Shown in pieces: positions 1,788-51,651 of a stretch of 64,000 bases of DNA. Under the pieces are notes generated by a model. That model was given only the letters and a program-made list of their open reading frames with translations, did not search any database and had not been told where the DNA came from. Each line of letters starts with the position of its first letter. Position 1 is the first letter of the stretch. The stretch lies in IMG/VR virus record IMGVR_UViG_3300045988_169460. One strand, written 5' to 3'. Made by a program: the position numbers and the translations under genes. This DNA comes from a virus.

Positions 1788-1985
1788 TTGAAAGGTTTTG
1801 AGAAACGTTTAAGTAAACAAAATTTTATGTTAATTAAAGTAAATGAATATTATTTTATTAGAAAAAGCAGAGCGTTTAATAATAGTTATATGGTATTAGA
1901 TTCAAAAGGGTATTTGATAGATTAGTTACAAGAAAAAATAGTTTGGCAAGTTTTTTTAGGCATAGATTTGGAGGAATGGGAATGA
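1788..1985 (+). CDS. small WE-tail protein interrupted by in-frame TAG (1923-1925)
   Basis: TTG start after GGTGGAGG. After the TAG the same frame continues LQEKIVWQVFLGIDLEEWE then TGA. The stop overlaps the next start (ATGA). Confidence 0.3.
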
Positions 1986-2197
1986 TTAAAAAACCTAATA
2001 ATAATTGTAGATTATGTAAGTGTCTTCATAACTATAGCTATTTTAAAAAAGGTGAATATTATTGGGCTGAATTAGGAGAACGTTTTTTTGCTGGTGCAGT
2101 TATAGTATATTTTGGGGATGAAAGACATGGTATATGCTCTATGGTTTTTCCCGACTTTTTCATTAAATTTCGATGGGAGGAGACACAATGGGAATGA
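1982..2197 (+). CDS. small WE-tail protein (ends TQWE)
   Basis: ATG 7 nt after GGAGG. C-terminus is FFIKFRWEETQWE. The track ORF 1943-2197 is probably over-extended at its 5' end. Confidence 0.5.
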   Translation: MIKKPNNNCRLCKCLHNYSYFKKGEYYWAELGERFFAGAVIVYFGDERHGICSMVFPDFFIKFRWEETQWE

Positions 2198-2394
2198 GGA
2201 TAACAGTAACTCCAAAAAGACAACTTATACATTATAATTTAAATGAACAATATATAGCAGTGTCTGTACTTAGTGTGTATGGAAGCATGGAATATAATAT
2301 TTATAGCAAAAAAGGCAATCTTCTAAATTCTTGGGTATCCTAAGAGGCATTATTTAAGTTTTTTAAAAAGGTGGTGGATAAAGAATGGGAATAA
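2194..2394 (+). pseudogene. small WE-tail gene interrupted by in-frame TAA (2341-2343)
   Basis: MRITVTPK...NSWVS, then TAA, then EALFKFFKKVVDKEWE and TAA in the same frame. A 37-codon remnant ORF (2385-2498) follows. Confidence 0.3.
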
Positions 2395-2481
2395 AATTAG
2401 TAAAGGCAAAAGATAATTCGGCTCATTTTAGTCGTGGAGAATTGTATAAAGTAATAATGGGAATAAAAGGAGGAAATAAAA

Positions 2482-2859
2482 ATGGAACCAATTATTAGTC
2501 CGTGGGTATTTTATTTTATTGATAAGTTAGAGGTAATAGAAATGCTTCCACTATATGTTTTTATTTTGGCAATATTAATAAATGGGGCATTACTTATGAC
2601 TAGTAAAACCGAAGAAGAGTTTGAAAAGGGGTTTTTCCCAAAAGTGTGGATAGCACTTTTCTCATTAGTGTTTATAATTAATTTTATAGTTCCTTCAAAA
2701 GAAACGGCATATAAAATGATTATAGCAAATTATGTAACACCTAACAGTATTTCTATAGTAAAAGAAGCCACAGAAGATAATATTGCTTCTTTATTAGATA
2801 AAATAGCAGTTACTTCACAGGCATTATCAGGAAGGGAGGAAAAAGAAAAATCCAAATGA
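2482..2859 (+). CDS. membrane protein (2 predicted TM segments)
   Basis: AGGAGG before the ATG and hydrophobic segments. Paralogue of the frameshifted gene at 45750-46053. Confidence 0.55.
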   Translation: MEPIISPWVFYFIDKLEVIEMLPLYVFILAILINGALLMTSKTEEEFEKGFFPKVWIALFSLVFIINFIVPSKETAYKMIIANYVTPNSISIVKEATEDNIASLLDKIAVTSQALSGREEKEKSK

Positions 2860-3056
2860 AACAGATAGAAAAAGTAAAGAAATTATATAAACCAAAATTT
2901 GAAATAGTAAGAGCAGAGAAAGTAAAAGATAATTATATATTATTCTTAGATGATAAAAATATTATATTAGAAGAAGATGCTTTTAAATCATTATTTGAGC
3001 TTTATAGTGCTTTAGTTTCTTATTATGATGTAAGAAAGGATGAAACAAATGATTGA
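2856..3056 (+). CDS. hypothetical protein
   Basis: ATGA overlap with the upstream gene. Confidence 0.45.
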   Translation: MKQIEKVKKLYKPKFEIVRAEKVKDNYILFLDDKNIILEEDAFKSLFELYSALVSYYDVRKDETND

Positions 3057-3744
3057 ATTATTCAATGGGAATTGTTTTGAAGTAATCGGGGGGGGGGCAG
3101 TAAAAGATAATAGTATAGATTGTATTATTACAGACCCTCCCTATAATGTTAGCAGAGAAACAAATTTTCATACTTTAAAGGGAGCTTTAAGAAATGGAAT
3201 GGATTTTGGAGAATGGGATAAAGGATTTGACATAACAGGTTATATTAAGTTGTTTCCTAGAATTCTAAAAGAAAATGCAAATGTTGTTATATTTAATGCT
3301 TGGGAAAATTTAGGAGAAATAGCAAAAGTATGTAGAGAATTTAATATAGCTCCTAAAAGATGTTTAGTGTTAAGTAAATCAAATCCCGCTCCATTTAATA
3401 GAGATAGAATGTTTGTTAATGATGTAGAATTTGCAATATGGGGAGTTTACAATTCTAAAAATAAACCTTCTAAATGGACATTTAACAGAGAAAATTTATT
3501 AGAAAAATGTGTGATTCCAACAACAGTGCAGTCTTCTAAATTACATCCAACAATGAAGGATGAGAAAGTAATAAATTATTTGTTGCGAGTTTTAACAAAT
3601 GAAAATGACTCAGTTTTAGATTTATTTATGGGGAGTGGCACTACAGGAGTTGCTTGTCGTAAATTAAAAAGAAATTTTATAGGCATAGAATTAGATACTA
3701 GGTATTTTGAAGTAGCAAAACGTAGAATAGAGGAAATAAAATGA
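3040..3744 (+). CDS. DNA methyltransferase, beta-class N6-adenine/N4-cytosine type
   Basis: Motif IV DCIITDPPYN precedes motif I LDLFMGSGTTGVACRKLKRNFIGIELD. Confidence 0.85.
   Translation: MKQMIELFNGNCFEVIGGGAVKDNSIDCIITDPPYNVSRETNFHTLKGALRNGMDFGEWDKGFDITGYIKLFPRILKENANVVIFNAWENLGEIAKVCREFNIAPKRCLVLSKSNPAPFNRDRMFVNDVEFAIWGVYNSKNKPSKWTFNRENLLEKCVIPTTVQSSKLHPTMKDEKVINYLLRVLTNENDSVLDLFMGSGTTGVACRKLKRNFIGIELDTRYFEVAKRRIEEIK
3088..3097 (+). repeat. G10 homopolymer in codons 17-20 of the methyltransferase
   Basis: atc ggg ggg ggg gca. G9 gives cag taa immediately; G11 gives a stop after 4 codons. Confidence 0.9.
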
Positions 3745-4013
3745 TTATACGCAAAGGTGATTATTTTAAAGTTCATACTTTTTTCAAGTATGATGGTAAT
3801 TCCTTTTTTAAAGGAAATTTATTACGAATAGTAAGTGATTTTTCAGTTGAGGAAGATGGCTTTTGCACAGTTTCTAATAAAGCTTGGCAAGGAACATCAA
3901 TAGGGCATACAAATGCAGGAAATCAATATAGTTTTGGTAAAGGAACACATTGGAATATTCCCATTAATTTTATAGAAGAACAATGTATTCCTGTGAGTCT
4001 TGAATGGGAGTGA
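3741..4013 (+). CDS. WE-tail protein, body family A (ends SLEWE)
   Basis: Paralogous to 4018-4305 and 38245-38508 (shared SNKAW...GH...YSFG...NW). Confidence 0.6.
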   Translation: MIIRKGDYFKVHTFFKYDGNSFFKGNLLRIVSDFSVEEDGFCTVSNKAWQGTSIGHTNAGNQYSFGKGTHWNIPINFIEEQCIPVSLEWE

Positions 4014-4017
4014 AAAC

Positions 4018-4305
4018 GTGAAATATAAGACAGGAGATTTTTTAATAGTTAAATCCCCTTTCAAAAGTGATGGTAATATTTTTCATGGAGAAGATATTCT
4101 TCGTGTGATTACATGTATTGATGATTATGCTGATGCTAATGAGAATGGCTATGTAATATCTAATAAATCTTGGATTTTTAGTCGAGAGGGGCATAGTGTA
4201 TATCGCAATAGTGCATATAGTTTCGGTAGAAATACAAATTGGTTTGTAAGATTTACTGTTTTAGAGGCTCATTGCACTTTATTAAAGAATAGAGAGTGGG
4301 AGTAA
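4018..4305 (+). CDS. WE-tail protein, body family A (ends NREWE)
   Basis: GTG start 7 nt after the GGGAG embedded in the upstream EWE codons. Confidence 0.55.
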   Translation: MKYKTGDFLIVKSPFKSDGNIFHGEDILRVITCIDDYADANENGYVISNKSWIFSREGHSVYRNSAYSFGRNTNWFVRFTVLEAHCTLLKNREWE

Positions 4306-4307
4306 CA

Positions 4308-11290: not shown

Positions 11291-11527
11291 ATGGTGTTTT
11301 TAAATAATAATATAGAATATGGTAGATTTCAAAAAGCAGTTCAAGGGATTACTGTATTAAACGAAAAACAGATACGAAAATTTTGGCACAAATTTAAAAA
11401 AGGTATTTCTAAAAATGAAATTAATATAAATCTCTTTTTTCCAGAATTTATAGAAACTATATTTGAGGGACAGGAAATATGGATTCTAAAGGAGTGGGTT
11501 ATATTTGAAGAAAATGCTGAAATTTAA
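11291..11527 (+). CDS. small protein, body family D (no WE tail)
   Basis: Paralogous to the next two genes. Confidence 0.5.
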   Translation: MVFLNNNIEYGRFQKAVQGITVLNEKQIRKFWHKFKKGISKNEININLFFPEFIETIFEGQEIWILKEWVIFEENAEI

Positions 11528-11762
11528 AAGCGGCGTAGATTATCGAACGTTTAGGTTTATATTTGGAACTGACAAACTTTCTTATAAAGCTTCTCACAAT
11601 CTTTGGAAAGAGCTTTCTACTGGGGTATCAAAAAAGCGTTTAAATTTAACATCAGTCGAAGGTTCACTACTTTATGAGTTTGAATACCTTAATGAAAAGT
11701 ATTGTTATTTTCCTGAGTTTTGGTTTGAAGAAGTTAGGTATTCTGATATTGAATGGGAGTAA
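11514..11762 (+). CDS. WE-tail protein, family D (ends DIEWE)
   Basis: ORF track; the ATG at 11514 is in frame. Confidence 0.55.
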   Translation: MLKFKSGVDYRTFRFIFGTDKLSYKASHNLWKELSTGVSKKRLNLTSVEGSLLYEFEYLNEKYCYFPEFWFEEVRYSDIEWE

Positions 11763-11765
11763 AAA

Positions 11766-12008
11766 ATGGTAAAATTAAAGGAAGGATTAGGGCATGCTGA
11801 GTGGCTTTGGTTTATGCACAATTCAATACAGTTTAGAAATGCTTGTTATGTAGATGCTAATATATTATGGAATATGTTAAAAGATGGGGTTTCAGAAGAT
11901 GCCTTAAAAATCAGAGATGATAGTACAGGTTATAAAGAAATCTGTTATAAAGAAGTTAAATATGCCTTACCTATAAAGTGGTGTTTGCCAATTTTTGAAT
12001 GGGAATAA
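11766..12008 (+). CDS. WE-tail protein, family D (ends IFEWE)
   Basis: ATG 5 nt after GGGAG-TAA. Confidence 0.55.
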   Translation: MVKLKEGLGHAEWLWFMHNSIQFRNACYVDANILWNMLKDGVSEDALKIRDDSTGYKEICYKEVKYALPIKWCLPIFEWE

Positions 12009-33523: not shown

Positions 33524-33781
33524 ATGCAGAAATTTAAGTTGAGAAATAAAGACCTAGATACTTTAATGGGGATTTATAGAAACAGTTCAATGATTTTTAT
33601 AAAAATAAATCAGTTAACACTACATCAATTTTTCTACGCACATATATCACAAGAAGCAATGGAAAGAAATGAGCCTATTCCTGTTAGAGAAGCTAATATT
33701 ATGACTAGTCGAGTATTGTTTTGGATGCTAGCAAGGGATTTTCTATATTTTTTTAAAAATATTGATGAGGAATGGGAATGA
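33524..33781 (+). CDS. WE-tail protein (ends DEEWE)
   Basis: ORF track. Confidence 0.55.
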   Translation: MQKFKLRNKDLDTLMGIYRNSSMIFIKINQLTLHQFFYAHISQEAMERNEPIPVREANIMTSRVLFWMLARDFLYFFKNIDEEWE

Positions 33782-34029
33782 GAAAAAAATATAGTTTTAG
33801 AAGTTATGTAACAATAAATTTTTTACAAAATATATTTCCTTTAACTGCTAATGAATGTAGAAAAGTATTAAAATGTGAATATTTTGAAGCAGAAGAAATA
33901 AGGATTAATTTACATAATTGTTTATTTATATATTTAGAGATAGATAATAAGGTAAGAAGATTTGTGGTTACAGAAAAAGAATTAAAATATTTTAGCAAAG
34001 AATTTAAAGGATTTTATGGATGGGAGTAA
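33778..34029 (+). CDS. WE-tail protein (ends YGWE)
   Basis: ATGA overlap with the upstream stop. Confidence 0.55.
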   Translation: MRKKYSFRSYVTINFLQNIFPLTANECRKVLKCEYFEAEEIRINLHNCLFIYLEIDNKVRRFVVTEKELKYFSKEFKGFYGWE

Positions 34030-37607: not shown

Positions 37608-37925
37608 ATGAAGAGAATTAGTTATGGAAAAAGATTTAGATTATTAGAAGAAGGGTATATTGGATACAAGTGGTTTTCTAAAGGGTCAATATTTATGGCT
37701 ACAGGATTAATTAGTTTTATGGGTAATAATATATTCCGTGTTTATAATCCTGATGGCAGTTTAAGACAAGATTTGCATACTGGTAATGGACATGTAAATT
37801 TTTTTTTAAGTTTATCTCCTATATCAAAAGATGAGCTTTTAGCATCAGAAGAATGTTATTGGTTTTTAAATGATATAGAATTAAGAACTTATTTTAAAGA
37901 AATTGTCTATGAGGAATGGGAGTAA
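37608..37925 (+). CDS. WE-tail protein, body family B (ends YEEWE)
   Basis: Paralogue of 37931-38239. Confidence 0.6.
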   Translation: MKRISYGKRFRLLEEGYIGYKWFSKGSIFMATGLISFMGNNIFRVYNPDGSLRQDLHTGNGHVNFFLSLSPISKDELLASEECYWFLNDIELRTYFKEIVYEEWE

Positions 37926-37930: not shown

Positions 37931-38239
37931 ATGAAAAAATACAAAGAAACTTTTATAGTAAAAAGTCAGTTTTCTGATGGATTAAGGACTTTTCCTAAAG
38001 GAACAATATTTGAAAGCACAGGAGTTTTTTTTGGCATTGAAACACTTTTTTGTGTTTACTATCCCGATGGAGTTCCTTATGCTTGTTTACATGATGGCAA
38101 TAGTGCTCAAATAATGCTTTTAAATAGAACACCTTTAACATTAGCTGAAATTCGAGCACAAGGTGATTGTCATTGGTGGGTTAGAAATTCTGATATTGAT
38201 GAATATTTTATACCAAAATCATCTTTAGAATGGGAGTGA
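37931..38239 (+). CDS. WE-tail protein, body family B (ends SLEWE)
   Basis: ATG 8 nt after GGGAG. Confidence 0.6.
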   Translation: MKKYKETFIVKSQFSDGLRTFPKGTIFESTGVFFGIETLFCVYYPDGVPYACLHDGNSAQIMLLNRTPLTLAEIRAQGDCHWWVRNSDIDEYFIPKSSLEWE

Positions 38240-38244: not shown

Positions 38245-38508
38245 TTGAACATAATACTAGGAGAATATTTTATAGTTACTAGACCTTTTAGATATGAGGG
38301 CAATGTATTTCATAAAGATGATTTATTACGTGTAGCTAAAATATATAGTTGGTCTAAAGTTTTAGTTTCCAATAGAGCTTGGATATCAACTAAAGTAGGA
38401 CACACAGACCCAAAAAATCAATATAGTTTTGGTGAAGAAACAAATTGGAATATTGATACAGAATATTTATTTAAAAATTGTGTTCCTTATAGGTCAGAAT
38501 GGGAGTAG
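38245..38508 (+). CDS. WE-tail protein, body family A (ends RSEWE)
   Basis: TTG 8 nt after GGGAG. Confidence 0.55.
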   Translation: MNIILGEYFIVTRPFRYEGNVFHKDDLLRVAKIYSWSKVLVSNRAWISTKVGHTDPKNQYSFGEETNWNIDTEYLFKNCVPYRSEWE

Positions 38509-38513: not shown

Positions 38514-38870
38514 ATGAAATATAAAGCAGGAGATGTAGTAAAAATTGACAAAACAAGATTTGTTATAGAAAGAGTTACTAAAAAAGGCTATATTTTATTT
38601 CCTCATATAGGATTTTTCGTAAAGGATTGCCAAATAAATAAAAAAATTAAAGTGAAGAAATCTTATGAATTAGGAGATAAATTCAAATGTCTATGTGACT
38701 TTAGTTCAGGGACTTCTGTGGCGAAAAAAGACAAACATTATATTTGTACACAGAAATTTTCAGATGGCACATATATGCTTACAAGAATAAAAAATAAAGA
38801 AGAGAAATTAAGAGTGAATACAAATCAGATTCATGCTTATTTTAGACATTATTTTGGAGGTTGGGAATAG
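38514..38870 (+). CDS. WE-tail protein (ends GGWE)
   Basis: ATG after GTGGAG. Confidence 0.55.
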   Translation: MKYKAGDVVKIDKTRFVIERVTKKGYILFPHIGFFVKDCQINKKIKVKKSYELGDKFKCLCDFSSGTSVAKKDKHYICTQKFSDGTYMLTRIKNKEEKLRVNTNQIHAYFRHYFGGWE

Positions 38871-39073
38871 TGCCAATAGGAACAAGAGTAAGAATAAGAG
38901 AAGATTTAAAAACTACAGAAACTTATGGTGGCGTAAGAGTTATAGAAGATATGCTAGTTTATGCAGGTAAAGAAACAACAATAATTTGGCATGAAGCTAA
39001 TGTATATCATATACTTTTAGATGATGGTTTTTACTATTGGACAGATGAAATGTTTATTAGTGAATGGGAATAA
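38870..39073 (+). CDS. WE-tail protein, body family C (ends ISEWE)
   Basis: GTG overlaps the upstream TAG, with GGAGG 9 nt upstream. Paralogue of 42037 and 46893. Confidence 0.55.
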   Translation: MPIGTRVRIREDLKTTETYGGVRVIEDMLVYAGKETTIIWHEANVYHILLDDGFYYWTDEMFISEWE

Positions 39074-42019: not shown

Positions 42020-42036
42020 ACTAAGGAGGCTTGCAA

Positions 42037-42255
42037 ATGATACCAATAGGAACAAGAGTAAGAATAAGAGAAGATTTAAAATTAGGTGTACTTTATAAAA
42101 ACAGAAATAATAAACGTGCTATGCATGCTTGTAGAGGCATGTTATTATTGGCTGGTAAAAAAGCGTACATAACAAATAATGTTAATAATATTTACTCTAT
42201 AGATAATGGTTTTTATTATTGGACAGATGGAATGTTTGAAACTGAATGGGAATAA
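42037..42255 (+). CDS. WE-tail protein, body family C (ends ETEWE)
   Basis: ATG after AAGGAGG. The N-terminus IPIGTRVRIREDLK is identical to that of 38870. Confidence 0.6.
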   Translation: MIPIGTRVRIREDLKLGVLYKNRNNKRAMHACRGMLLLAGKKAYITNNVNNIYSIDNGFYYWTDGMFETEWE

Positions 42256-42263
42256 AAAAAGTC

Positions 42264-42292: not shown

Positions 42293-42322
42293 ACATTTAT
42301 CAAATCAAAAGGAGATGTAAAA

Positions 42323-43492
42323 ATGTTAAATTGCAAAATTTGCGGTAATGAAATTAGTGGAGCTTATACAATTTATCAAAAAGACGGAGTAGAATATCCA
42401 GCACACATTGAATGTGTCGAAGAAAACAAGCAACATTGTGATGAGTGCAATAAGTTTTTTGATAGAGAAGATTTAAAAACTACAACATTAGGAAACCATT
42501 ATTGCCCAGATTGTTTGTCTGAAAAAACTGTAGTTTGTGGAAAATGCGGTAAACACGTAGAAAATGCACCATTGAAAAGAGTAAATAGTGTATCTTATTG
42601 TCAAGAGTGCTTTGAACAGAAATGGGTATATTGTGTAAAATGTGGTAAAAGGGTTTTAAGAAGCAGAGCAAAAAATTTAAATAATACACATTATTGCGCT
42701 TCATGTGCTAGTTCTGTTGTTAAGGTAGAAAATTATAGTTACAAACCTACCCCTATATTTTGTGGTGTAGATAGTTCTCGTTATTTTGGTATTGAAGTCG
42801 AAACTGAGGGCAGAAAAAGTAATCTTTATGCAGAAGAAATTATTGGAGGTTCAAAAATTTTCTATGCAAAACATGATGGCAGTTTAAATAATGGAATTGA
42901 ATTTGTAAGTCATCCTTGCACTCTTAACTATTGGAGAGAGGAATCCAAGCTTGATGAATTTTGTAAAAGAGCGATTGGTTTAGGATTTAACTCTCATAAA
43001 ACTACTTCTTGTGGATTGCATGTTCATATTACTAAATCTACAGTAGAAAGGGAAGCTTTTGAAAAAGTGCTTCTGTTTTTAAGCAATAACTGGGATGATG
43101 TGGTGAAATTTACACGCCGTAAAAGTTCCAGCATTAATAGATGGGCGGCTAATAATTTAGGGGATGCACCAATGATTAAAACTTGTACTCTTGCACAAAA
43201 AATGAAATTAGTAAAAGAGTATTCTTCTGGCAGTCGTTATGTAGCAGTAAATGAAACATCTAAGACATATGAATTCCGTATTTTTAGAGGAACTTTAAAA
43301 CCTGAAACTATTTTAGCTTGCATTGAGTTTTGTGATGCTCTTATCAATTTATGTGCTAGTTTGCCTTTTGCAAACATTGAAACAGCTAATTTTAATACTT
43401 TAATAGAATTTGCAAAACCTAAAGGATGCTATAAAGAGCTTGTAGAATATTGGGAAACTCGAACAATGAAGAAGAATGTTGTTATTGAATAA
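42323..43492 (+). CDS. amidoligase (glutamine-synthetase-like COOH-NH2 ligase, Amidoligase_2-type) with an N-terminal array of about four zinc ribbons, copy 1
   Basis: Eight CxxC pairs in the first ~130 aa. Then FGIEVETEG, HDGSLNNGIEFVSHP, CGLHVHI, YEFRIFRGTL. Confidence 0.65.
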   Translation: MLNCKICGNEISGAYTIYQKDGVEYPAHIECVEENKQHCDECNKFFDREDLKTTTLGNHYCPDCLSEKTVVCGKCGKHVENAPLKRVNSVSYCQECFEQKWVYCVKCGKRVLRSRAKNLNNTHYCASCASSVVKVENYSYKPTPIFCGVDSSRYFGIEVETEGRKSNLYAEEIIGGSKIFYAKHDGSLNNGIEFVSHPCTLNYWREESKLDEFCKRAIGLGFNSHKTTSCGLHVHITKSTVEREAFEKVLLFLSNNWDDVVKFTRRKSSSINRWAANNLGDAPMIKTCTLAQKMKLVKEYSSGSRYVAVNETSKTYEFRIFRGTLKPETILACIEFCDALINLCASLPFANIETANFNTLIEFAKPKGCYKELVEYWETRTMKKNVVIE

Positions 43493-43528
43493 AAAACTTT
43501 TATACTTAAAGAAAGCAGAGTGATATAA

Positions 43529-44137
43529 ATGTGTATTGTAATTTACCAACCTAAAGGAAAGCAAGTGCAAAAAGCAATTTTACAGAAAGCATTTGAAAAC
43601 AATCCTGATGGTGCAGGATTTATGGTTCAAAAAGATAAAGAAGCACCATATATGATGAAGGGATTTTTTGATTTTGATAAATTTTATAAATCATATCTTC
43701 CATTTTCTAAAGGGGATTATAACGTAGCAATTCATTTTAGAATTGCTACACATGGAACAGTAAACAAAGATAACTGTCATCCATTTAAAATTTCTTCTGA
43801 TATTGCTGATACTGTTTTATTTAATGGCAGGGCAGATTCGCTGATAATGCATAATGGCATTATTAGTAGCATTATGACACCAAGAAATCTGCCATATAGT
43901 GATACAATGAATTTTATTGCAAAGATTTTATGTTGGATGAAAGACCTTAAATCTAAAGATTTGACAGAAGTATTAAAAAACCTCGAAAGTTATTCAAAGT
44001 TTTGTATAATGAGAAAAGGATTTGACCCCATTCTAGCGGGGCTTTTTATTGAAGATAGAGGTATTTTTTATAGCAATTCAACTTATAAATATAGTTATGT
44101 TAATACTTTTCAAAATTGTAAAACTTATTTAAATTAA
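43529..44137 (+). CDS. Ntn-type (class II) glutamine amidotransferase-like protein, copy 2
   Basis: MCIVIYQP, NPDGAGFM, HFRIATHG...NCHPF. Lies 37 nt after the amidoligase. Confidence 0.65.
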   Translation: MCIVIYQPKGKQVQKAILQKAFENNPDGAGFMVQKDKEAPYMMKGFFDFDKFYKSYLPFSKGDYNVAIHFRIATHGTVNKDNCHPFKISSDIADTVLFNGRADSLIMHNGIISSIMTPRNLPYSDTMNFIAKILCWMKDLKSKDLTEVLKNLESYSKFCIMRKGFDPILAGLFIEDRGIFYSNSTYKYSYVNTFQNCKTYLN

Positions 44138-44148
44138 GGAGGGTAAAA

Positions 44149-44451
44149 ATGGAAACGAGAAATTATATAAGCGAAGAGCTTTTTCAAAAAATGAAAGAAG
44201 CTTTAACTAAAAATGATGATACATTTTGTGATTTTTCCAGTGATGTAACTGTTATGTTAACTGTTCCAAAAACTTTAAGTAAATTTACAGTTTCCAAGAA
44301 AGTATTTCGTATTCGTATTAAAGATAATTGGTTTAGTGTAGATGCAAAAAGATTAAAAAGTCTCTCCTATGCGATACTAAATAAAAGATTAAATAGAACA
44401 ATATTAGCGGCAGAAGATGCTCCTGATGAAATCATTGCTTTTTGCGAATGA
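44149..44451 (+). CDS. hypothetical protein
   Basis: ATG after AAGGAGGG. Confidence 0.45.
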   Translation: METRNYISEELFQKMKEALTKNDDTFCDFSSDVTVMLTVPKTLSKFTVSKKVFRIRIKDNWFSVDAKRLKSLSYAILNKRLNRTILAAEDAPDEIIAFCE

Positions 44452-44894
44452 AAACATTTAGAGGAATAATGGAAGTATCGTCACAAGTGTGCATAGGGGA
44501 TATTTTTAATCCAAATCTTGTATTTGATACTTCCAAAGGTATTTATAAATGTTATGTAGAAGAAGAAAATGCTGAAATTATAGCAATATATCTAATAAAA
44601 GAAGGATATAAAAATCCTGAAATAACAAATAACTATTCTATCATTCTTAGTCCTTCAACTTTTATTGGATTTTTTAACAACGACTACAGTACAAAAAAAG
44701 CACAAAATATCAAAGAAGCAAGTCAATATGAATTACCTAAAGAATATGTAATAGAAAACGCATTAAAAAATTCAATTATAAATTTGCCTATTGTAACTTT
44801 AAAATATTTTGTAGCCTGTTTAAAAACAAAAAATTATGTATTATATAGAGGCAAGCATGGATTTAAAATAGCGAAATTGGAGGAGTGCTTATGA
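44448..44894 (+). CDS. hypothetical protein
   Basis: ATGA overlap. Confidence 0.45.
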   Translation: MKTFRGIMEVSSQVCIGDIFNPNLVFDTSKGIYKCYVEEENAEIIAIYLIKEGYKNPEITNNYSIILSPSTFIGFFNNDYSTKKAQNIKEASQYELPKEYVIENALKNSIINLPIVTLKYFVACLKTKNYVLYRGKHGFKIAKLEECL

Positions 44895-45298
44895 TAGAAA
44901 CTTATCAAAGCTCAAATGACATTAGTTTTGGAGATGTATTTAAATTTGTAAAAGATTGCTATTATAAAGGCATGAGAATTCCTAAAGGGACTTTAGCTAC
45001 AGTAACTTTTTCTATACCTTATAAGGGTTATTGGACAGTAAAAGTAAATGAAGTAATGGTTCAAGTCAGAGAAGATGATATAGTTTTCCATGCTTCTTTG
45101 AAGGATTGTTTAAAAGTAGGGACAGTAGTATCATTTTACAATATGGGTAAAAAAGTAAAAGGAGTAATTGAGAATTTAGAAAATACTAAAGAGGCTAAGA
45201 TTATTACAGGACATAATTGTTATGTCGTTTTACCTCTTACAAGACTTTCTTTACTTCTACCAAGAACTAAAGATTGGTCTTACGTAAAAAAAGATTAA
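44891..45298 (+). CDS. hypothetical protein
   Basis: ATG after GGAGGAG. Confidence 0.45.
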   Translation: MIETYQSSNDISFGDVFKFVKDCYYKGMRIPKGTLATVTFSIPYKGYWTVKVNEVMVQVREDDIVFHASLKDCLKVGTVVSFYNMGKKVKGVIENLENTKEAKIITGHNCYVVLPLTRLSLLLPRTKDWSYVKKD

Positions 45299-45302
45299 TT
45301 AT

Positions 45303-45400
45303 ACAGCAAATAAAGATTATTATTAAAGTATCTAATACACATTATAGACGTGTATTTTAAAACTTAATAAATTTAATCTTTATTTGCTGTTTTTATTTTT
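45303..45400 (+). terminator. long compound hairpin followed by a T-run
   Basis: 17-bp stem ACAGCAAATAAAGATTA / TAATCTTTATTTGCTGT encloses an inner hairpin (AATACAC/GTGTATT) and is followed by TTTTTATTTTT. Confidence 0.6.
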
Positions 45401-45558
45401 ATTAAAATGGAGCAGAAAATAACAAATGCACATTATTTTAAACATACCTTTCAGACGCATATATTTGACCTCTGAGGAGTTTTATAGAGTTTTAGGGAGG
45501 ATTACTCTTGCGAAGAATAAAACTCCTCAGAAGTGAAATTTGAGCATTAAATTAAAAG

Positions 45559-45587
45559 TTGACAATAGAAATTGAGTATGGTATAAT
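45559..45587 (+). promoter_or_regulatory. sigma-A-type promoter (TTGACA-17-TGgTATAAT)
   Basis: Consensus boxes. Confidence 0.65.
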
Positions 45588-45604
45588 AAAGGCGAGGTGA
45601 AGAT

Positions 45605-45763
45605 ATGGAAAAATTAACAAAAGTAATGAAAAATGGAAAGCTTTATAGAATTTTATTAAATGTTAGTGGTTATTGTATTATTCAAGATTTAGAAACAAAT
45701 GCGATTGAATTTGCAGATGAAAAAGAATTGGATTTTAAAGAAGGAGTGAATGAAAATGATTAG
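45605..45763 (+). CDS. small hypothetical protein (52 aa)
   Basis: ATG after GAGGTGA. Below the track cutoff. Confidence 0.4.
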   Translation: MEKLTKVMKNGKLYRILLNVSGYCIIQDLETNAIEFADEKELDFKEGVNEND

Positions 45764-46053
45764 TCCGTGGACAATTTATTGGTTAGGAGTTTTAGAGTCT
45801 TTACAGAGCACTATTTTTATAATTTTAAGTGTATTTACTATAGTGCTTGTTATACATGGAATAAATGAACTTACAAAAGATTCAGAAGAAAGAAAGGACA
45901 TCAACATATTAAAAAAAAGGCATTATAATTTGGTTGGTTATGATATTTGTGATAAGCTTTATTCCATCAAAAGAGACAGTAAAGAAAATGTATTTGATTG
46001 ATAACCCAACAAGTAAAATGACTCTTGAAGTATTGGAGGCTGTAAAAGAATGA
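45750..46053 (+). pseudogene. membrane protein paralogue of 2482-2859, frameshifted at an A8 run (45911-45918)
   Basis: Frame 0 gives MKMISPWTIYW...ILKK. The +1 frame after the A-run gives GIIIWLVMIFVISFIPSKETVKKMYL..., which matches the paralogue (PSKETAYKMII). Loss of one A restores a single ORF. Confidence 0.5.
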
Positions 46054-46301
46054 TTTTGACTATAATGATTCCTTTTAATATTGGAGATAAAGTAAAGGCT
46101 TCAGAAGTATATTTTCTAAAGCCTTTTTGTACTGTAAGTGACATTCAAAACGCTGATTCTTTCAGGGAAGTATTAGTTATAGATGTTAAAAATAATATCA
46201 AAGGTAATTTGCAAGTTTTAGTTGAACTTTCTGATTTAACGAGGAGATGGATTCCGATTTGGATTATTCGTTTATGGGGGCAACTATATGATGAAATTTA
46301 A
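46050..46301 (+). CDS. hypothetical protein
   Basis: ORF track. Confidence 0.45.
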   Translation: MILTIMIPFNIGDKVKASEVYFLKPFCTVSDIQNADSFREVLVIDVKNNIKGNLQVLVELSDLTRRWIPIWIIRLWGQLYDEI

Positions 46302-46548
46302 ATATGAGAAAGCAACAGATATTTTACCTATCAATGGTGTTTTAGCTTGTACTATTAATGGATTATTAGAGAAAGATTTATTTAAGAAGCTTATAGAGAA
46401 ATCGTCATTAGAATATACAGAGCAGGAAGTAGATAAAAGTTATATTTATCGCATTAGTGTCACTACTTCTAAAGATTTAGAAAAGACATATTCTTTAGTT
46501 CATTCATTTGGGCTTTATTTAGGCGAATTTAATACTTTAAGGATGTGA
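46288..46548 (+). CDS. hypothetical protein
   Basis: ORF track. Confidence 0.45.
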   Translation: MMKFKYEKATDILPINGVLACTINGLLEKDLFKKLIEKSSLEYTEQEVDKSYIYRISVTTSKDLEKTYSLVHSFGLYLGEFNTLRM

Positions 46549-46554
46549 AATAAT

Positions 46555-46722
46555 TTGATAAAAGAATTTAAAGTAACAATTAAAAAAACAGTTGAATATA
46601 CTACTTATTTAACTCTTAATCATTTACAAGATGCTTATGAAGAAGCCGAGCGGGAAATGGATAGATTAGATATTAGTGAATATGAAGAAGTAGATAGTGA
46701 AATAACAGTGGAGGAGCAATAA
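46555..46722 (+). CDS. small acidic protein, PcfM/DpnD-like (55 aa)
   Basis: TTG start. The pattern KEFKVTIKKTVEYTTYL...AYEEAERE resembles 56726-56905(-) and 57329-57526(-). Confidence 0.35.
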   Translation: MIKEFKVTIKKTVEYTTYLTLNHLQDAYEEAEREMDRLDISEYEEVDSEITVEEQ

Positions 46723-46723
46723 A

Positions 46724-46906
46724 ATGTTGTGCTATAAAGATATGTCATTTTGTTCTGCTAGCTACAAAGAAGCAGAAAAACCTTGTATTTGCACTGAATG
46801 TTTTAGGCATTTAAGCAAAGTTCCTGAAAATTTGCCTGATTATATGCCAGTAGCTGTATCTGATTTCTCTAAAGAATGTGAGGAATACAAATATGCGAGA
46901 ATTTAA
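46724..46906 (+). CDS. small Cys-rich protein
   Basis: ORF track. Confidence 0.45.
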   Translation: MLCYKDMSFCSASYKEAEKPCICTECFRHLSKVPENLPDYMPVAVSDFSKECEEYKYARI

Positions 46907-47132
46907 AATAGGAGACAGTGTTTTAATAAGAACAGATTTAGTAGTAAATCATGTATATAGGACTAATAATGGTGCTCAACGTGCTTATTTTGCAAAACAA
47001 ATGACAAAGTATAAAGGGAAGAAATTATTAATAGTAGGCAAGGATTATAAAGGTTATATATGTTCTTATAACGAAGAAGTTCTTGGTTGGACTTTTGTAA
47101 ATGAAATGTTTGAAGATATTGAATGGGAATAA
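46893..47132 (+). CDS. WE-tail protein, body family C (ends DIEWE)
   Basis: ATG after GAGGAA. Confidence 0.55.
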   Translation: MREFKIGDSVLIRTDLVVNHVYRTNNGAQRAYFAKQMTKYKGKKLLIVGKDYKGYICSYNEEVLGWTFVNEMFEDIEWE

Positions 47133-47138
47133 GAGGTA

Positions 47139-47167
47139 TTGACTTTTAAGCTTTATTGTGGTATAAT
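47139..47167 (+). promoter_or_regulatory. sigma-A-type promoter (TTGACT-17-TGgTATAAT)
   Basis: Near-consensus boxes. Confidence 0.6.
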
Positions 47168-47187
47168 AAATTCATAGGAGAAATGAA

Positions 47188-47394
47188 ATGACAAAAGTTG
47201 AATTATTTAATAAATTTTTAGAGGATAGTGATGCAACAATAACAATATCTTTCTTATTCTGTAAAGAAAATTATGGTTTATTTTTCAAACATAGAAATTT
47301 AGCTTGTATCTTATCTTTATGGCATTTTCAAATTTTAATTCATAAAGGAGATTTATTAAAATATTGTTCAGAAAAATTAAAGGAGCGTAAATAG
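47188..47394 (+). CDS. hypothetical protein
   Basis: ATG after TAGGAG. Confidence 0.45.
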   Translation: MTKVELFNKFLEDSDATITISFLFCKENYGLFFKHRNLACILSLWHFQILIHKGDLLKYCSEKLKERK

Positions 47395-47396
47395 AA

Positions 47397-47723
47397 ATGG
47401 AAACAGTACAATTAGAGCAAATAGCAAATAACTTAATAGCTAAATTAGAACCAGCATGTGTAGAAGTATTAAATCAAGGAGCAAATTTTGTAGCAACAGA
47501 AGCTTTATATTTAGTTATTATAAACATTGTATTTTTTATGGTTTGTTTTATTGGCATTTGGCTTGCTTCAAATATAAGAGATACAGATATTCAAGAAGTT
47601 ACAATAGCCGTACTTTTAGTAGGTGCTCTTTTATCAGCGGCTAATTTTCTCTTAACTTTTTCGCATAATATGGCTACAATTCAATATCCTATGGGGTATT
47701 TAATAGTAAATGTATTAAAATGA
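47397..47723 (+). CDS. membrane protein
   Basis: Two TM segments. Confidence 0.45.
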   Translation: METVQLEQIANNLIAKLEPACVEVLNQGANFVATEALYLVIINIVFFMVCFIGIWLASNIRDTDIQEVTIAVLLVGALLSAANFLLTFSHNMATIQYPMGYLIVNVLK

Positions 47724-47724
47724 G

Positions 47725-48018
47725 GTGATAAAAATGAATTTTGAAAAAGCGTTAAAAAAAGTAAAAGACATCGTATGGAAATGGCAGTTTTCTGAAAAGA
47801 GAGAGGCATTTATTCAGGTTATAGTAGCCGCTCAAAAACAAATTCCAAAATTAGCAAAAGTAAGTGTAGTACCTCAATATATTGAAGGAAGGGAAATGCC
47901 TAAATTAGTTCCTGTAGATGTACGTTGTCCTGAATGCGATTCTATAGTATCCATAAGAGATAATTATTGTTCAGATTGTGGGCAAGCTCTTAGTTTTGAT
48001 TTTAAGGAGGGGCATTAA
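47725..48018 (+). CDS. zinc-ribbon protein
   Basis: CPECDS...NYCSDCG. Confidence 0.45.
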   Translation: MIKMNFEKALKKVKDIVWKWQFSEKREAFIQVIVAAQKQIPKLAKVSVVPQYIEGREMPKLVPVDVRCPECDSIVSIRDNYCSDCGQALSFDFKEGH

Positions 48019-48431
48019 TGTATAGCAAGTATATCCAACAATTTTTAGAAGATAATGATTTACAAGCAGGTGAAAAATTTTATATTTTGGGAGAAGATGG
48101 TGAGGAATTAAATGGCAAAAGTAACTATTATTTTAAAATAAATCCAGAGAGCACACTTGATATTTTAAAATGTGATAGTGATAGAACTTGTCAGGATTTT
48201 GTTTTATTAAGATTATTGACTGAAAAGTATAAAGTGAAGAAAACACCTTTTCATCCTAAAAAACATGAAACGTTTTATTATGTAACTGTTCAAGGAGATA
48301 TTGAAGAAGAAGACTTTTATGAGGGATATACATTTCATTATTTATTATGTAAACTAGGAAAATGCTATAAGACTTATAAGGAAGCAGAAAAACATGTAGA
48401 AGAAGATGTTAAATTTTATAAAAATATGTAA
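48018..48431 (+). CDS. hypothetical protein; paralogue of 4436-4846 and 57764-58177(-)
   Basis: The N-terminal 53 nt are identical, in inverted orientation, to 58107-58159. Confidence 0.55.
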   Translation: MYSKYIQQFLEDNDLQAGEKFYILGEDGEELNGKSNYYFKINPESTLDILKCDSDRTCQDFVLLRLLTEKYKVKKTPFHPKKHETFYYVTVQGDIEEEDFYEGYTFHYLLCKLGKCYKTYKEAEKHVEEDVKFYKNM

Positions 48432-48445
48432 AAAGGGTGAAGAAT

Positions 48446-48604
48446 ATGACAAAACAAGAAATTATAGACTTTATTAGAGAAGCTATTGAGTTAAAAAATA
48501 AAACAGAAGGTGTATTAACTACCACTCAATATAGACATGTAGAAGAATTTGTTGATATGTGTGAAGATTGGGTAAATTATCTAAATAGAATTGAAAGGAA
48601 CTAA
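48446..48604 (+). CDS. small hypothetical protein (52 aa)
   Basis: ATG after AGGGTGA. Below the track cutoff. Confidence 0.4.
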   Translation: MTKQEIIDFIREAIELKNKTEGVLTTTQYRHVEEFVDMCEDWVNYLNRIERN

Positions 48605-48607
48605 GAT

Positions 48608-48961
48608 ATGTGGTTTTCATTTTTTAAAAAAGACAAAGAAATAGAAGAACATGCAGAAAAATTAAATACATTATTTAAACATACGTGTCATTATGAAAGA
48701 ATTGGAGTATATTTTAAAGAAATAGAATCTATAAGTACAGATTTAGTAGTTGTATATGTTATAGAGATTTTAAAGTGTCATTTTTGCGGTAATATGGTAG
48801 AAAATGTTTTAACAAAATCTATATATAAAGTTGATAAAGAACGTGAAGATTTAATAAATTATATAAACTCATTAACAAAACATAAAATACCTTCTGAATT
48901 AAAATACAAACTTGACAATGAGGGGAAATATCTTTATGGACAATATAACTCTATTAAATGA
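48608..48961 (+). CDS. hypothetical protein
   Basis: ORF track. Confidence 0.45.
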   Translation: MWFSFFKKDKEIEEHAEKLNTLFKHTCHYERIGVYFKEIESISTDLVVVYVIEILKCHFCGNMVENVLTKSIYKVDKEREDLINYINSLTKHKIPSELKYKLDNEGKYLYGQYNSIK

Positions 48962-49310
48962 ATTTAGAAATCTTATAAAAGAAGTAAAGCAATTAGAAAG
49001 TATATATGAAGCGGAAATAAATGAAATGGACAAAGCCTTTGGTGATATAAGGCACTTTTGTGAGCTAGATTACCCTGTAGAACGTAAGGGAAAAACGAAA
49101 GTAGTAAAACTTATCAAAGAGTGTAGTGATAAGCGTAGAAAGGCAAAAGACAATTTAGAAATATTAAAGCCACTTATAGCATATATTGATGCACACCCTA
49201 AATTTGTGCAAGATATAGGAGTGGTGGCAAATGAAATGAAAAATATAGAAAGAAAACAACATGGGAGAATATATAGACCGAGGATATTAAAAGAATTATT
49301 TAGTGAGTGA
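48936..49310 (+). CDS. hypothetical protein
   Basis: In-frame ATG after GAGGGGA. Confidence 0.45.
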   Translation: MDNITLLNEFRNLIKEVKQLESIYEAEINEMDKAFGDIRHFCELDYPVERKGKTKVVKLIKECSDKRRKAKDNLEILKPLIAYIDAHPKFVQDIGVVANEMKNIERKQHGRIYRPRILKELFSE

Positions 49311-49316
49311 TAATAA

Positions 49317-49781
49317 ATGATAATATTAAAGAAAACGGAAAGAATAATAAAAGTTCCTACAATGCTTTCTACATCACAACAAAGAAAAAATGATATATTA
49401 GTTGATTTATTACATCGTGCATACCCTTCAATAATACAAGGAGTATTATTACAGCGGTTAAAGAAATCTGAATTAGGAATAATAATGATGTCTCTAACAT
49501 GGAGAGTGGCAGGGGTAAGATATGTACAGCTATCAACAAATTATGGAGCCTCTTTAGTAAAGAGAGAGCAAGCATATAGAAGTATATGCAAAGTAGAGAT
49601 AAATAGAGAATTAATGAGAGATTTATTTTATAGTTTCGCAAATTTTTTTATTTATGATTTTTCTATAAGTGATTATAATAGAATATTTAAGGATTTTCTT
49701 TATACAGGCGATTGGTTTGAAGATTTACATACTTATTTAGGTTATTATATTCGTTATATGAATTTAAAGGAATGGGAGTAA
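49317..49781 (+). CDS. WE-tail protein (ends LKEWE)
   Basis: ORF track. Confidence 0.55.
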   Translation: MIILKKTERIIKVPTMLSTSQQRKNDILVDLLHRAYPSIIQGVLLQRLKKSELGIIMMSLTWRVAGVRYVQLSTNYGASLVKREQAYRSICKVEINRELMRDLFYSFANFFIYDFSISDYNRIFKDFLYTGDWFEDLHTYLGYYIRYMNLKEWE

Positions 49782-49786
49782 GAAAA

Positions 49787-50266
49787 ATGCAACTAACAAA
49801 ATTAGATACTGAACATTTATTGAATTATTTAGTAGGAGAAACTAGAGATGTACAGCTCGTTAACTTACAAATAGTATGTGATATTTTAGAGAGGTTTACA
49901 GGGATAGAAGAGCATATGCCAGGGTTTTTATCTAATTATTTTATGGCTAAGGTAAAACTAGCATTTAGAAGACCTTTAAAAAAGGGTGATTTAGTAATAG
50001 CTAGAAGACGATTTTTAGGAAAAAATAATATTGCTCTATGTGAAGGGGCTGTATGTGAAGTTTTAGAGATATTAGAAGGGCGTAAATTAGCTGTAAGGAA
50101 TATTCATACTAAAATGCCAATAGAAGCTCCAGAAGATTGTTTTAAGCTTTTAGGTGTAAAAGAGGAATGCTGGTCAGAAGAAGAAGAGATAATAGCAAAA
50201 TATGCTAAGGCATTTCCAGATTGGGGATTAATGGCAGAAATAGCGAGAGAAAAAAGGGGTGACTAA
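49787..50266 (+). CDS. hypothetical protein
   Basis: ATG 8 nt after GGGAG. Confidence 0.5.
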   Translation: MQLTKLDTEHLLNYLVGETRDVQLVNLQIVCDILERFTGIEEHMPGFLSNYFMAKVKLAFRRPLKKGDLVIARRRFLGKNNIALCEGAVCEVLEILEGRKLAVRNIHTKMPIEAPEDCFKLLGVKEECWSEEEEIIAKYAKAFPDWGLMAEIAREKRGD

Positions 50267-50268
50267 AA

Positions 50269-50451
50269 ATGAGATATATGGAAATAGAAGAAAAATATAT
50301 GAATAGACTGACAAAAGAGATAAATGTGGCGGCAAAATATGGGTGGGAAGTAGTAACTACAATTTTCAATGGAGAAAAGTATATAGCATTATTAAGAACA
50401 GAATCGAATGAAAGTGTATATAAACCAGAAACATTTAAGTTTAGAGTTTAG
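50269..50451 (+). CDS. small protein (DUF4177-like, tentative)
   Basis: The ...AAKYGWEVVT... motif is shared with 56431-56559(-). Confidence 0.35.
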   Translation: MRYMEIEEKYMNRLTKEINVAAKYGWEVVTTIFNGEKYIALLRTESNESVYKPETFKFRV

Positions 50452-50482
50452 AAAAAAGGGCGGGAAAGAATAAATAAAATAC

Positions 50483-50511
50483 TTGACAATGAGAATAATA
50501 AGTGATATAAT
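50483..50511 (+). promoter_or_regulatory. sigma-A-type promoter (TTGACA-17-TGaTATAAT)
   Basis: Consensus boxes. Confidence 0.65.
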
Positions 50512-50545
50512 ATAGACAAGAGGTAAGGAAAAGGAGATTGATATT

Positions 50546-50728
50546 ATGAAAAAATCATATCAAGTATTTTATTGGATTAAAGCTAATAGACAAGAAACAT
50601 TAAATCACATTTTTATCATGGCGAATAACGCAAAAGAAGCATGCAGAAAATGTAAAGAATTAGTATTAGAAAGAACAGGAAGAGATGCTTTTAGACCCAC
50701 AGTTAATAGTCCATATCCTTATAAATAA
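50546..50728 (+). CDS. small hypothetical protein
   Basis: ATG after AAGGAG. Confidence 0.45.
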   Translation: MKKSYQVFYWIKANRQETLNHIFIMANNAKEACRKCKELVLERTGRDAFRPTVNSPYPYK

Positions 50729-50968
50729 TGAGGGGAAACACAAGGGCGGGAAAATAGGTGAAAATAAGAGCGGGAAGAATATATAAGAAGTATATAGCTA
50801 AGAATAGTATTGATATAGAACATATAGTAGTAAGAGGGTAAAAGAAATAATATTTTATCTGTAACTATAGAAGAAATAAGATATGATTATAAGAACAAAG
50901 AGTTATAATTTGTATAATGCAATTCTGTGCTTACAAAAAAGAAATATTATATAATACACATTTGTATT

Positions 50969-51008
50969 TTTGTATAATACTTATTCATAAATTTGTATAA
51001 TACTTATT
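50969..51008 (+). repeat. direct repeats TTTGTATAATACTTATT x2, plus a degenerate copy at 50909-50920
   Basis: Two 17-nt copies 23 nt apart in a 430-nt non-coding region. Each contains TATAAT. Confidence 0.7.
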
Positions 51009-51162
51009 TGTATTCAAGAAACCTCCCTTTAAAGGCGAATTTGAAAAGCGATTTCAAATTTTGTTGTAAAAACAACAGAATGGTAATTAAAGGTACACAC
51101 GTATGGAGGTAAAAGGGCATAAAGCTAGGTGTAGCAAGGGTTGAAGGGTGTGAGAATAAAAA

Positions 51163-51651
51163 ATGTGGATACAGTATAATCTTGTAGATGTAAGAAATTT
51201 AGACACTATTGAAAAAGAGTATTACGATGTTGAGACTGATGTTAAAATGCACAAACTTATAATGAATCAATGGCAAGAATTAATAAAACATAATGAATAT
51301 TTAGGAGTAACTCCAAAAGAGATATCTGTACTTATAAGGTGGGCAATTTCATATTCTTTAGGTAGAAGAATATATATAAAAACAGGATTCAACTATACAA
51401 GAGAAATAGGCTATACAGGTGTTCCACAGATATATGAGTATCTTTTAAATGAAACACAGCCATCAATAAGAGGGACTACTAAATGGGTAGATTTTATTAT
51501 ATGTCTTATTAGAGTAGTAGAGAAACTGACAGGTAGAAGGAATTTAGGTAGCTTGCTTCCTTGCAGGTCAGCAACTTATAGAGAACAAATAGAGTGGTTA
51601 ATAAAATTTTATCTTAGATTTTATAATAGCAGAAGCGATGAATGGGAATAA
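51163..51651 (+). CDS. WE-tail protein (ends SDEWE); last gene of the rightward arm
   Basis: ORF track. Confidence 0.55.
   Translation: MWIQYNLVDVRNLDTIEKEYYDVETDVKMHKLIMNQWQELIKHNEYLGVTPKEISVLIRWAISYSLGRRIYIKTGFNYTREIGYTGVPQIYEYLLNETQPSIRGTTKWVDFIICLIRVVEKLTGRRNLGSLLPCRSATYREQIEWLIKFYLRFYNSRSDEWE

Follow-up and report, generated by a model that had tools for sequence, protein, structure and literature searches.

Very short peptides at the extreme C-terminus of a protein can serve as docking sites, as in the SSB tail (...DDDIPF-COOH), the ClpX-binding tail of SspB and the EEVD-COOH end of Hsp70/Hsp90, which is read by the carboxylate clamps of tetratricopeptide repeat (TPR) domains. Terminal signals are also carried by unrelated proteins, examples being the Dot/Icm C-terminal E-block and the capsid-targeting sequence of phage T4. 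Pup (...GGQ/GGE-COOH), which works with the carboxylate–amine ligases PafA/Dop, is a single disordered modifier of ~64 amino acids (aa) with no Trp at position -2. Here, a C-terminal Trp-Glu dipeptide (the W-E tail) was analysed that recurs on small proteins encoded by a 64,000-nucleotide (nt) stretch of viral DNA, IMG/VR record IMGVR_UViG_3300045988_169460, referred to below in its full length as the window. The DNA is that of an uncultured human-gut phage, a distant relative of Bacillus phage BCD7. That the tail is genuine and under selection, in part at least for its peptide sequence, is very probable, and the reading favoured here, at a probability of roughly 0.45, is that it would be a common docking handle for a single reader.

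The original prediction listed 18 frames on the window, and in all 18 the stop codon is preceded in frame by TGG-GAR, such that every listed frame ends in W-E-stop. The final tripeptides were also as described, with EWE at 15 ends, GWE at two (ends 34029 and 38870) and QWE at one (end 2197), and the stop codon does vary (TAA 11 times, TGA five times and TAG twice). The figure of 18 tail genes holds for W-E-stop frames; two of these (ends 1985 and 2394) are interrupted by nonsense codons and are open for just 19 and 16 codons, respectively, which leaves 16 intact genes. For the statistics of terminal WE a greedy set of 141 genes (19,508 residues) was used. The 16 intact genes ending in WE compare with 0.14 expected from composition (Poisson P = 1.2e-27), bearing out the claim that chance recurrence is implausible, and internal WE dipeptides number merely 13 in the whole set. 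None of the genes at 52–64 kb has the tail, as had been stated.

At the nucleotide level, TGGGARTRR occurs 19 times in the window, on the + strand in every case, compared with 4.1 ± 2.0 copies in dinucleotide-preserving shuffles. Eighteen copies are the tails themselves and the 19th is an intergenic remnant at 2458–2466. The motif is not equally common out of frame or in non-coding DNA: each of the 18 copies within genes is in frame, and the window has no out-of-frame genic copy and none on the opposite strand.

Alignment of 35 non-redundant tails showed E at position -1 and W at position -2 in 100% of cases, followed upstream by a looser preference at position -3 (E 18, G 10, Q 3, others 4). 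Over the families the observed ends are therefore [EGQDSAV]-W-E, and codon -3 is correspondingly variable (GAA, GAG, GGT, GGC, GGG, GGA, CAA, GAT, TCT, GCG and GTA). As the stop codon varies too, TGG-GAR-stop alone is fixed across families. Acidic or small residues dominate positions -3 to -6 and aromatic residues make up 26–49% of positions -9 to -14, against a background of 11%, in agreement with the aromatic-then-acidic pattern originally noticed. The aromatic residues probably belong to the final core element of the respective small domain, in which case the tag proper is probably the short acidic or small linker together with W-E-COOH.

A decisive question was whether related phages have the tail, and it was found that orthologues keep it while their bodies diverge or are replaced. 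The close relatives L001–L014 retain every tail. Full-length homologues of one paralogue group, group A (Table 1), end in EWE in 15 of 15 cases at 56–93% identity, with positions -4 to -6 varying. When all homologous open reading frames (ORFs) were taken, without preselection for the tail, W-E was kept in 127 of 132; four of the five exceptions are premature stops 8–20 codons before the end and the fifth is a terminal E-to-K change. Moreover, W-E is retained between paralogues that are merely ~32% identical. The bodies, in contrast, evolve rapidly: the median ratio of non-synonymous to synonymous polymorphism (pN/pS) among close relatives is 0.87 for tail genes, with several above 1, versus 0.12 for 40 neighbouring genes (Mann–Whitney P = 5e-4). 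Several of the group A homologues (P0010, P0014 and P0016, homologous to 3741, 4018 and 38245) are mosaic, with the N-terminal half of one paralogue joined to the C-terminal half of another, which points to frequent recombination between paralogues 34 kb apart.

Replacement of bodies is apparent in the more distant locus L027, whose DpdA-like transglycosylase is 75% identical to that of the window. L027 is syntenic with window positions 27–47 kb, and 22 kb of it contain ten W-E-stop genes, which share one strand and end mostly in GGWE, otherwise in QWE, EWE or DWE. These genes fill the same slots as the tail genes of the window; for example, the slot of the gene at 33524 holds five other tail genes in L027. 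Nevertheless, nine of the ten have no detectable homologue in the window. In the other direction, an L027 homologue was found for only one of nine tail genes at 27–47 kb as against 32 of 36 non-tail genes (Fisher P = 1.9e-5). The one tail gene with a BLAST-detectable orthologue is that at 38514, and the orthologue also ends in GGWE. Further away, no W-E tail was found in the 32 kb of BCD7 examined or in the 15 kb examined of L030 (DpdA 39% identical).

The wider distribution was scanned with a pattern of two TAA-type tails one small gene apart, which returned 33 loci in IMG/VR, at least 120 in GTDB genomes and at least 120 in metagenomes. Among the matches listed, in-frame double tails are confined to this phage group, and the remainder were rejected as phage tails, being chance matches or members of a family resembling precursors of ribosomally synthesised and post-translationally modified peptides (RiPPs) that ends in AYxDWE. 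These RiPP-like genes are tandem small ORFs of 46–68 aa (L173 4212–5023; also L232, L233, L283 and L287) on contigs of 50–57% G+C. Their products have a common leader, MKYETPELTALT...AIQG, and the C-terminus AY-x-DWE, and are unrelated to the phage tails.

The tail is attached to many kinds of body. In the sampled loci 125 distinct tail ORFs fall into 23 BLAST families, of which 22 are genuine once a truncation artefact is removed. Of the paralogue groups proposed for the window, A, B and C were recovered by BLASTP and the link within group D is weak (BLASTP E = 0.018; hhalign 46%). Profile comparison with the tails masked (last 8 residues removed) placed five family pairs at 36–91% hhalign probability and most of the 253 pairs below 20%. 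The description of the bodies as otherwise unrelated thus stands for most of them but has to be relaxed for groups A and C, which both model as SH3-like barrels, and for the 38514 family, which is remotely linked to group C. Pfam gave no match at E < 0.05 for the 14 tail proteins scanned, and matches in PHROGs were limited to the group C bodies (PHROG 7488, E = 2e-12 to 2e-7) and a weak one for 38514; the 154-aa and 162-aa singletons matched neither. Pfam, PHROGs and literature searches likewise returned no earlier description of the tail, consistent with the first impression that it had not been described.

Group C allows the boundary between domain and tail to be placed. Its profile, the only one for which an exhaustive profile search was made, was run against 1.84 billion representative proteins (word-indexed homologue searches yielded close relatives alone) and gave 2,743 protein hits, mostly with 2–6 tandem repeats. 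The hits align to positions 2–64 of 68, so that the xEWE end lies outside the alignment. Members of the hit set match the Mind bomb SH3 repeat of Pfam (SH3_15); for the proteins of the window themselves, Pfam scores stay below the reporting level. When the group C domain was aligned with 22 outside homologues, the domain was seen to end in ...W-T-D-E-M-F-E, followed by a stop or by unrelated residues, and E-W-E, placed 2–3 residues past this point, was confined to proteins of the present lineage. Group C bodies are therefore, by profile and by modelled fold, members of a widespread, usually tandem-repeated SH3_15-like domain (PHROG 7488); the likeness is one of the body only, as members elsewhere have no W-E after ...WTDEMFE. 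Together with the absence of tails from the stretches of BCD7 and L030 examined, the sequence comparison indicates that the tail is a lineage-specific addition.

The AlphaFold2 model of the group C protein encoded at 38870 is a confident SH3-like barrel (mean predicted local distance difference test score, pLDDT, 93.7), with the last four residues in coil and the positions of low pLDDT in the final block. Foldseek matched it to SH3/KOW barrels, including the Mind bomb 1 REP domain (4xi6, query TM-score, TMq, 0.69), all with weak E-values. The group A model is of moderate confidence (pLDDT 71.9) and beta-rich, with the last five residues in coil and weak Foldseek matches to SH3 domains. In both models, then, W-E is predicted to be exposed coil beyond the last structured element.

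Together, these data give the carriers a common anatomy, that is, a compact body, an aromatic-rich last core element, an acidic or small linker of 3–7 residues, and, outside the fold, the invariant Trp-Glu, whose carboxylate is free; at least two groups of bodies are modelled as SH3-like barrels and others have no family match. As a docking handle, W-E-COOH would be a lineage-specific tag on a large, fast-turnover set of small accessory proteins, read by either a hub of the host or a conserved protein of the phage, which would recognise the Trp side-chain and the two terminal carboxylates. The variable bodies would provide diverse arms-race specificities, giving many variable adaptors or effectors with one constant handle, and, where the next gene starts within 3–7 nt, a last codon of GAG would let TGGGAG double as its Shine–Dalgarno sequence. 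Nine perfect promoters (TTGACA-17-TGnTATAAT) lie on the + strand at 33445–50511, in the rightward arm (33–52.5 kb, within 19.5 kb), and several begin 6–8 nt past a tail stop codon. The tail genes of this arm are thus placed behind strong host-type promoters, and the tail proteins are probably expressed early.

Several points weigh against a docking handle. Docking itself is inferred. Trp has one codon and Glu two, and selection on the peptide therefore cannot be directly separated from selection on the six invariant nucleotides, while a role at the RNA level can be demonstrated for the third base of the final codon. The aromatic enrichment upstream may be just the last core element of small domains and not a motif. 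The high pN/pS is inflated by mosaic recombination between paralogues, but the contrast between fast bodies and an invariant W-E still remains stark. Finally, the five natural variants without a tail mean either that it is not absolutely required or that the assemblies contain errors.

Among the alternatives, the one that survives best is a stability signal, though we consider it unlikely. Here the tail would either act as a degron, limiting the lifetime of early proteins, or be a charged anti-degron that keeps proteases which recognise C-termini away from the small, fast-evolving carriers. Proteolysis in bacteria depends strongly on C-terminal residues (ssrA-type LAA ends, Tsp/Prc, ClpXP), with acidic ends tending to be stabilising; an exposed, terminal tail, as modelled, on proteins encoded behind strong host-type promoters is consistent with such a role. 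However, an anti-degron needs no invariant Trp, Asp never substitutes for the final Glu, and other small genes in the same operons have no tail. This reading, like the nucleotide-only and common-descent readings considered below, is a weaker alternative to the docking handle.

A bolder proposal, which must be rated quite unlikely, is that the W-E end is the handle of a protein-targeting system run by the phage. In a Pup-like version amounting to viral conjugation, the amidoligase and class II glutamine amidotransferase (GAT-II) enzymes would ligate or amidate the terminal Glu. In a version resembling proteolysis-targeting chimeras (PROTACs), the proteins would be adaptors whose tail hands a host defence protein, bound by the body, to one host machine, for instance a protease. 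If true, one constant two-residue address would serve an arsenal of more than 20 arms-race proteins.

The simpler enzymatic idea, put forward by analogy with Pup/PafA or RimK, is that the tail is a substrate tag: the two Amidoligase_2 proteins, together with the GAT-II-like proteins of the phage, would amidate its terminal Glu carboxylate or join it to an amine or to a lysine of a protein. The Amidoligase_2 proteins, encoded at 42323–43492 and 53831–55285, have Pfam E-values of 4e-9 and 1e-11 and a weak N-terminal LIM-like zinc-finger match each. The two GAT-II candidates (39143–39934 and 43529–44137) are paralogous, begin Met-Cys and have sub-threshold GATase_4 matches. Moreover, tail gene 42037–42255 lies directly upstream of an amidoligase gene, an arrangement kept in L027 with another tail gene; the mostly ...GGWE tails of L027 are reminiscent of the GGE of Pup; and BCD7 has neither tails nor a detectable amidoligase. 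Against this, no ORF ending in WE was seen in 40 kb of a Clostridioides phage whose amidoligase is homologous, and amidoligase homologues occur also in mycobacteriophages and other phages, where the presence of the enzyme only was compared. A phmmer search of PDB sequences with these enzymes returned neither PafA/Dop nor any related solved structure. The carriers are also folded and diverse rather than one disordered modifier, and the enzymes adjoin a 7-deazaguanine DNA-modification cluster, so that they may equally target nucleobases; both the amidoligases and the GAT-II-like proteins could have DNA bases, and not proteins, as substrates. We regard the idea as very unlikely.

Whether the signal is one of nucleotides only, with TGGGAR-stop serving as a Shine–Dalgarno or coupling element, or as a microhomology boundary for cassettes of small genes, and the peptide a by-product, can be approached through the last codon. 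Where a start codon lies 3–7 nt past the stop, the final Glu is encoded by GAG in 20 of 23 cases, whereas GAA is used in all 14 promoter contexts and in 13 of 14 overlapping-start contexts. Thus, both codons occur, as had been noted, but they do not vary freely: the choice tracks what lies downstream. In TGG-GAG-stop, GGGAG is positioned ~8 nt ahead of the next start, as a Shine–Dalgarno sequence is. This RNA-level overlay is genuine and accounts for the wobble base of the last codon only, not for the Trp. A purine-rich GGAG-type core 5–10 nt before a start is found with the GAG subset alone, whereas the GAA tails (GGGAA, about half of all tails and no Shine–Dalgarno) precede promoters, a hairpin or ATGA overlaps, several of them with no coupled gene to follow. 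The tail resembles a Shine–Dalgarno sequence embedded in the 3' end of an upstream gene in that GGGAG stands 8 nt before the start and codon choice follows use; it differs in that the Trp, the GAA tails and the tails before promoters or the hairpin are left unexplained. For the same reason the Shine–Dalgarno sequence was rejected as the entire explanation. Lys-Glu, Arg-Glu or Gly-Glu could encode it equally well, yet Trp alone is used.

Two further nucleotide-level candidates were rejected. The ATG within GAATGG is in frame with the next gene because of the fixed 8-nt spacing from Shine–Dalgarno sequence to start, or because of the ATGA overlap, and the tail is not a by-product of it. Nor are the genes integron-like cassettes with attC-like sites, as what recurs is only a 12–23-nt direct repeat (tail plus Shine–Dalgarno sequence) and no inverted repeats are present.

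The boundary version of the nucleotide reading draws on gene gain and loss, which seems to break at the repeated tail motif, used as a junction. In L042 an additional gene of ~194 nt (...VALEWE) is inserted precisely at the tail junction corresponding to window 1984/1985, L037 and L042 both have an additional intact ...YNFGWE gene directly after the ...VVDKEWE gene, paralogues are mosaic, and a remnant tail, reading TAA TAA TGG GAA TAA with its surroundings, persists in non-coding DNA at 2458–2466. On the other hand, merely 9 nt are common across lineages, with no attC-like inverted repeats, all genic copies are in frame on one strand, and the conservation of W-E in paralogues of ~32% identity is unexpected if a boundary is conserved passively. 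Use of the motif as a cassette junction is regarded as a by-product, and the nucleotide-only reading as highly improbable.

Scarcely probable, finally, is common descent, by which all carriers would be diverged members of one small-protein superfamily that inherited W-E with the fold: the SH3-like models of groups A and C, the remote link of the 38514 family to group C and the frequent tandem paralogue arrays speak for it, and against it stand the tail-less group C homologues outside the lineage, the placing of the last 4–5 residues, W-E included, in coil past the last secondary-structure element in both models, the two singletons with no Pfam or PHROG match and the low hhalign probability of most of the family pairs.

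The tail genes of the window (Table 1) include two adjacent ones that are cut by nonsense codons.

Table 1. Tail genes and the tail remnant of the window
Coordinates	Strand	Description
1788..1985	+	small gene, ...DLEEWE tail, cut by in-frame TAG at 1923–1925
1982..2197	+	71 aa, ends ...EETQWE; start overlaps preceding stop (ATGA)
2194..2394	+	small gene, ...VVDKEWE tail, cut by in-frame TAA at 2341–2343
2458..2466	+	intergenic remnant TGGGAATAA, TAA TAA directly before; spacer ahead of gene 2482
3741..4013	+	group A, 90 aa, ...VSLEWE; model beta-rich, SH3-like, last 5 residues coil
4018..4305	+	group A, 95 aa, ...KNREWE
11514..11762	+	group D, 82 aa, ...SDIEWE
11766..12008	+	group D, 80 aa, ...PIFEWE, then promoter
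33524..33781	+	85 aa, ...NIDEEWE; variable slot
33778..34029	+	83 aa, ...GFYGWE; in variable slot of 33524..33781
37608..37925	+	group B, 105 aa, ...VYEEWE; pN/pS 1.29
37931..38239	+	group B, 102 aa, ...SSLEWE; pN/pS 1.30
38245..38508	+	group A, 87 aa, ...YRSEWE
38514..38870	+	118 aa, ...YFGGWE
38870..39073	+	group C, 67 aa, modelled SH3_15-like barrel, ...FISEWE; tail past predicted fold, low pLDDT; then promoter
42037..42255	+	group C, 72 aa, ...FETEWE; single-gene unit with a consensus promoter on each side
46893..47132	+	group C, 79 aa, ...EDIEWE, then promoter
49317..49781	+	154-aa singleton, ...NLKEWE
51163..51651	+	162-aa singleton, ...RSDEWE; last rightward-arm gene, hairpin after

The gene at 1788–1985 is intact in L042 (83 aa, ...DLGEWE), and relatives have TGG or TGT in place of the TAG codon. 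Similarly, relatives have CAA at the TAA codon of the gene at 2194–2394, which makes it an intact 73-aa gene with its tail. Both nonsense mutations are single-base changes and remove the last 16–19 codons, tail included. Late premature stops are likewise present in relatives L037 and L005, and the terminal E-to-K change is in L022. Such events could represent tolerated loss, selected loss or assembly errors.

Two further genes touch on the motif. That at 11291–11527, directly upstream of both group D genes, ends in ...WILKEWVIFEENAEI and has an internal KEW followed by 12 further residues, and may be a former tail that has since been extended. The gene at 56431–56694 (- strand) has an internal ...VPYGWE that becomes terminal in L010 through truncation of the longer protein; it was rejected as a chance look-alike and is no true tail.

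The source phage has a genome of ~97–99 kb with 30% G+C and is present on many human-gut metagenome contigs. No close phage was found in GenBank by megablast of 6 kb, nor by tblastn with group C. The window encodes a family-A DNA polymerase, RecA, a DnaG-type primase, RtcB and the two Amidoligase_2 proteins; no tRNA genes were found in it. A 7-deazaguanine cluster at 29219–30259 and 34520–37542 comprises PTPS/QueD, radical-SAM QueE, YAcAr, QueC and the DpdA-like transglycosylase, a protein of 613 aa that is 33% identical to gp021 of BCD7, and gene order is syntenic with BCD7. The phage genome is probably deazaguanine-modified, and its host may be a low-GC member of the Bacillota. The polymerase gene (21263–23968) appears split, with an ORF at 21263–22936 that stops inside the polymerase domain and a 52-aa ORF at 23810–23968 that ends in ...GRTYSEAK, similar to the C-terminus of the BCD7 polymerase (...GKTYAEAK). 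Between the two ORFs lie ~0.9 kb that may contain an intron or a mobile insertion.

Uncharacterised host-takeover and anti-defence functions reside mainly in the small early proteins of phages, which rarely give the experimenter a point of entry. The W-E signature marks a whole class of such proteins in a prevalent human-gut phage and can be used as a bioinformatic label for a hypervariable accessory set, and an ...EWE-COOH peptide is a simple bait for a common reader. The tail is thus a testable viral case of many variable proteins with one constant tag. Should the reader prove to be a host hub or a ligase of the phage, a new organising principle for phage early proteomes would have come to light, and it would be worth searching other phages systematically for terminal tags specific to their genomes.

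How the tail relates to described systems depends on which property is compared. With Pup it shares an invariant C-terminal Glu, often preceded by Gly-Gly in L027. Amidoligase_2 proteins, which are of a carboxylate–amine ligase family, are encoded nearby. However, where Pup is a single small disordered protein ending in GGQ/GGE, here more than 20 families of 65–162 aa carry the tail, and the two modelled groups are folded. The possible partners are the two Amidoligase_2 proteins, for which phmmer against PDB sequences gave no PafA/Dop match; no PafA, Dop or proteasome was recognised. With the Dot/Icm E-block and T4 capsid targeting the likeness is that non-homologous, fast-evolving proteins of one genome bear one terminal routing signal. 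The present signal is a strict dipeptide with its carboxylate, whereas the other two are either longer and degenerate or N-terminal and removed by cleavage; the window shows no secretion apparatus and no evident packaging role, and the carriers lie behind strong host-type promoters. The tails of SSB and SspB and the EEVD end are alike in being a very short, exposed, acidic and hydrophobic free C-terminus that follows a flexible linker and is read independently of the body. None of their sequences matches W-E; moreover, the tail there belongs to one family and serves one or many partners, whereas here a single phage lineage has it on more than 20 families that are unrelated and evolve fast. The kind of element is therefore known, namely that of C-terminal docking or targeting peptides, and what is new is a strict dipeptide tag on more than 20 unrelated, fast-evolving proteins of a single phage lineage.

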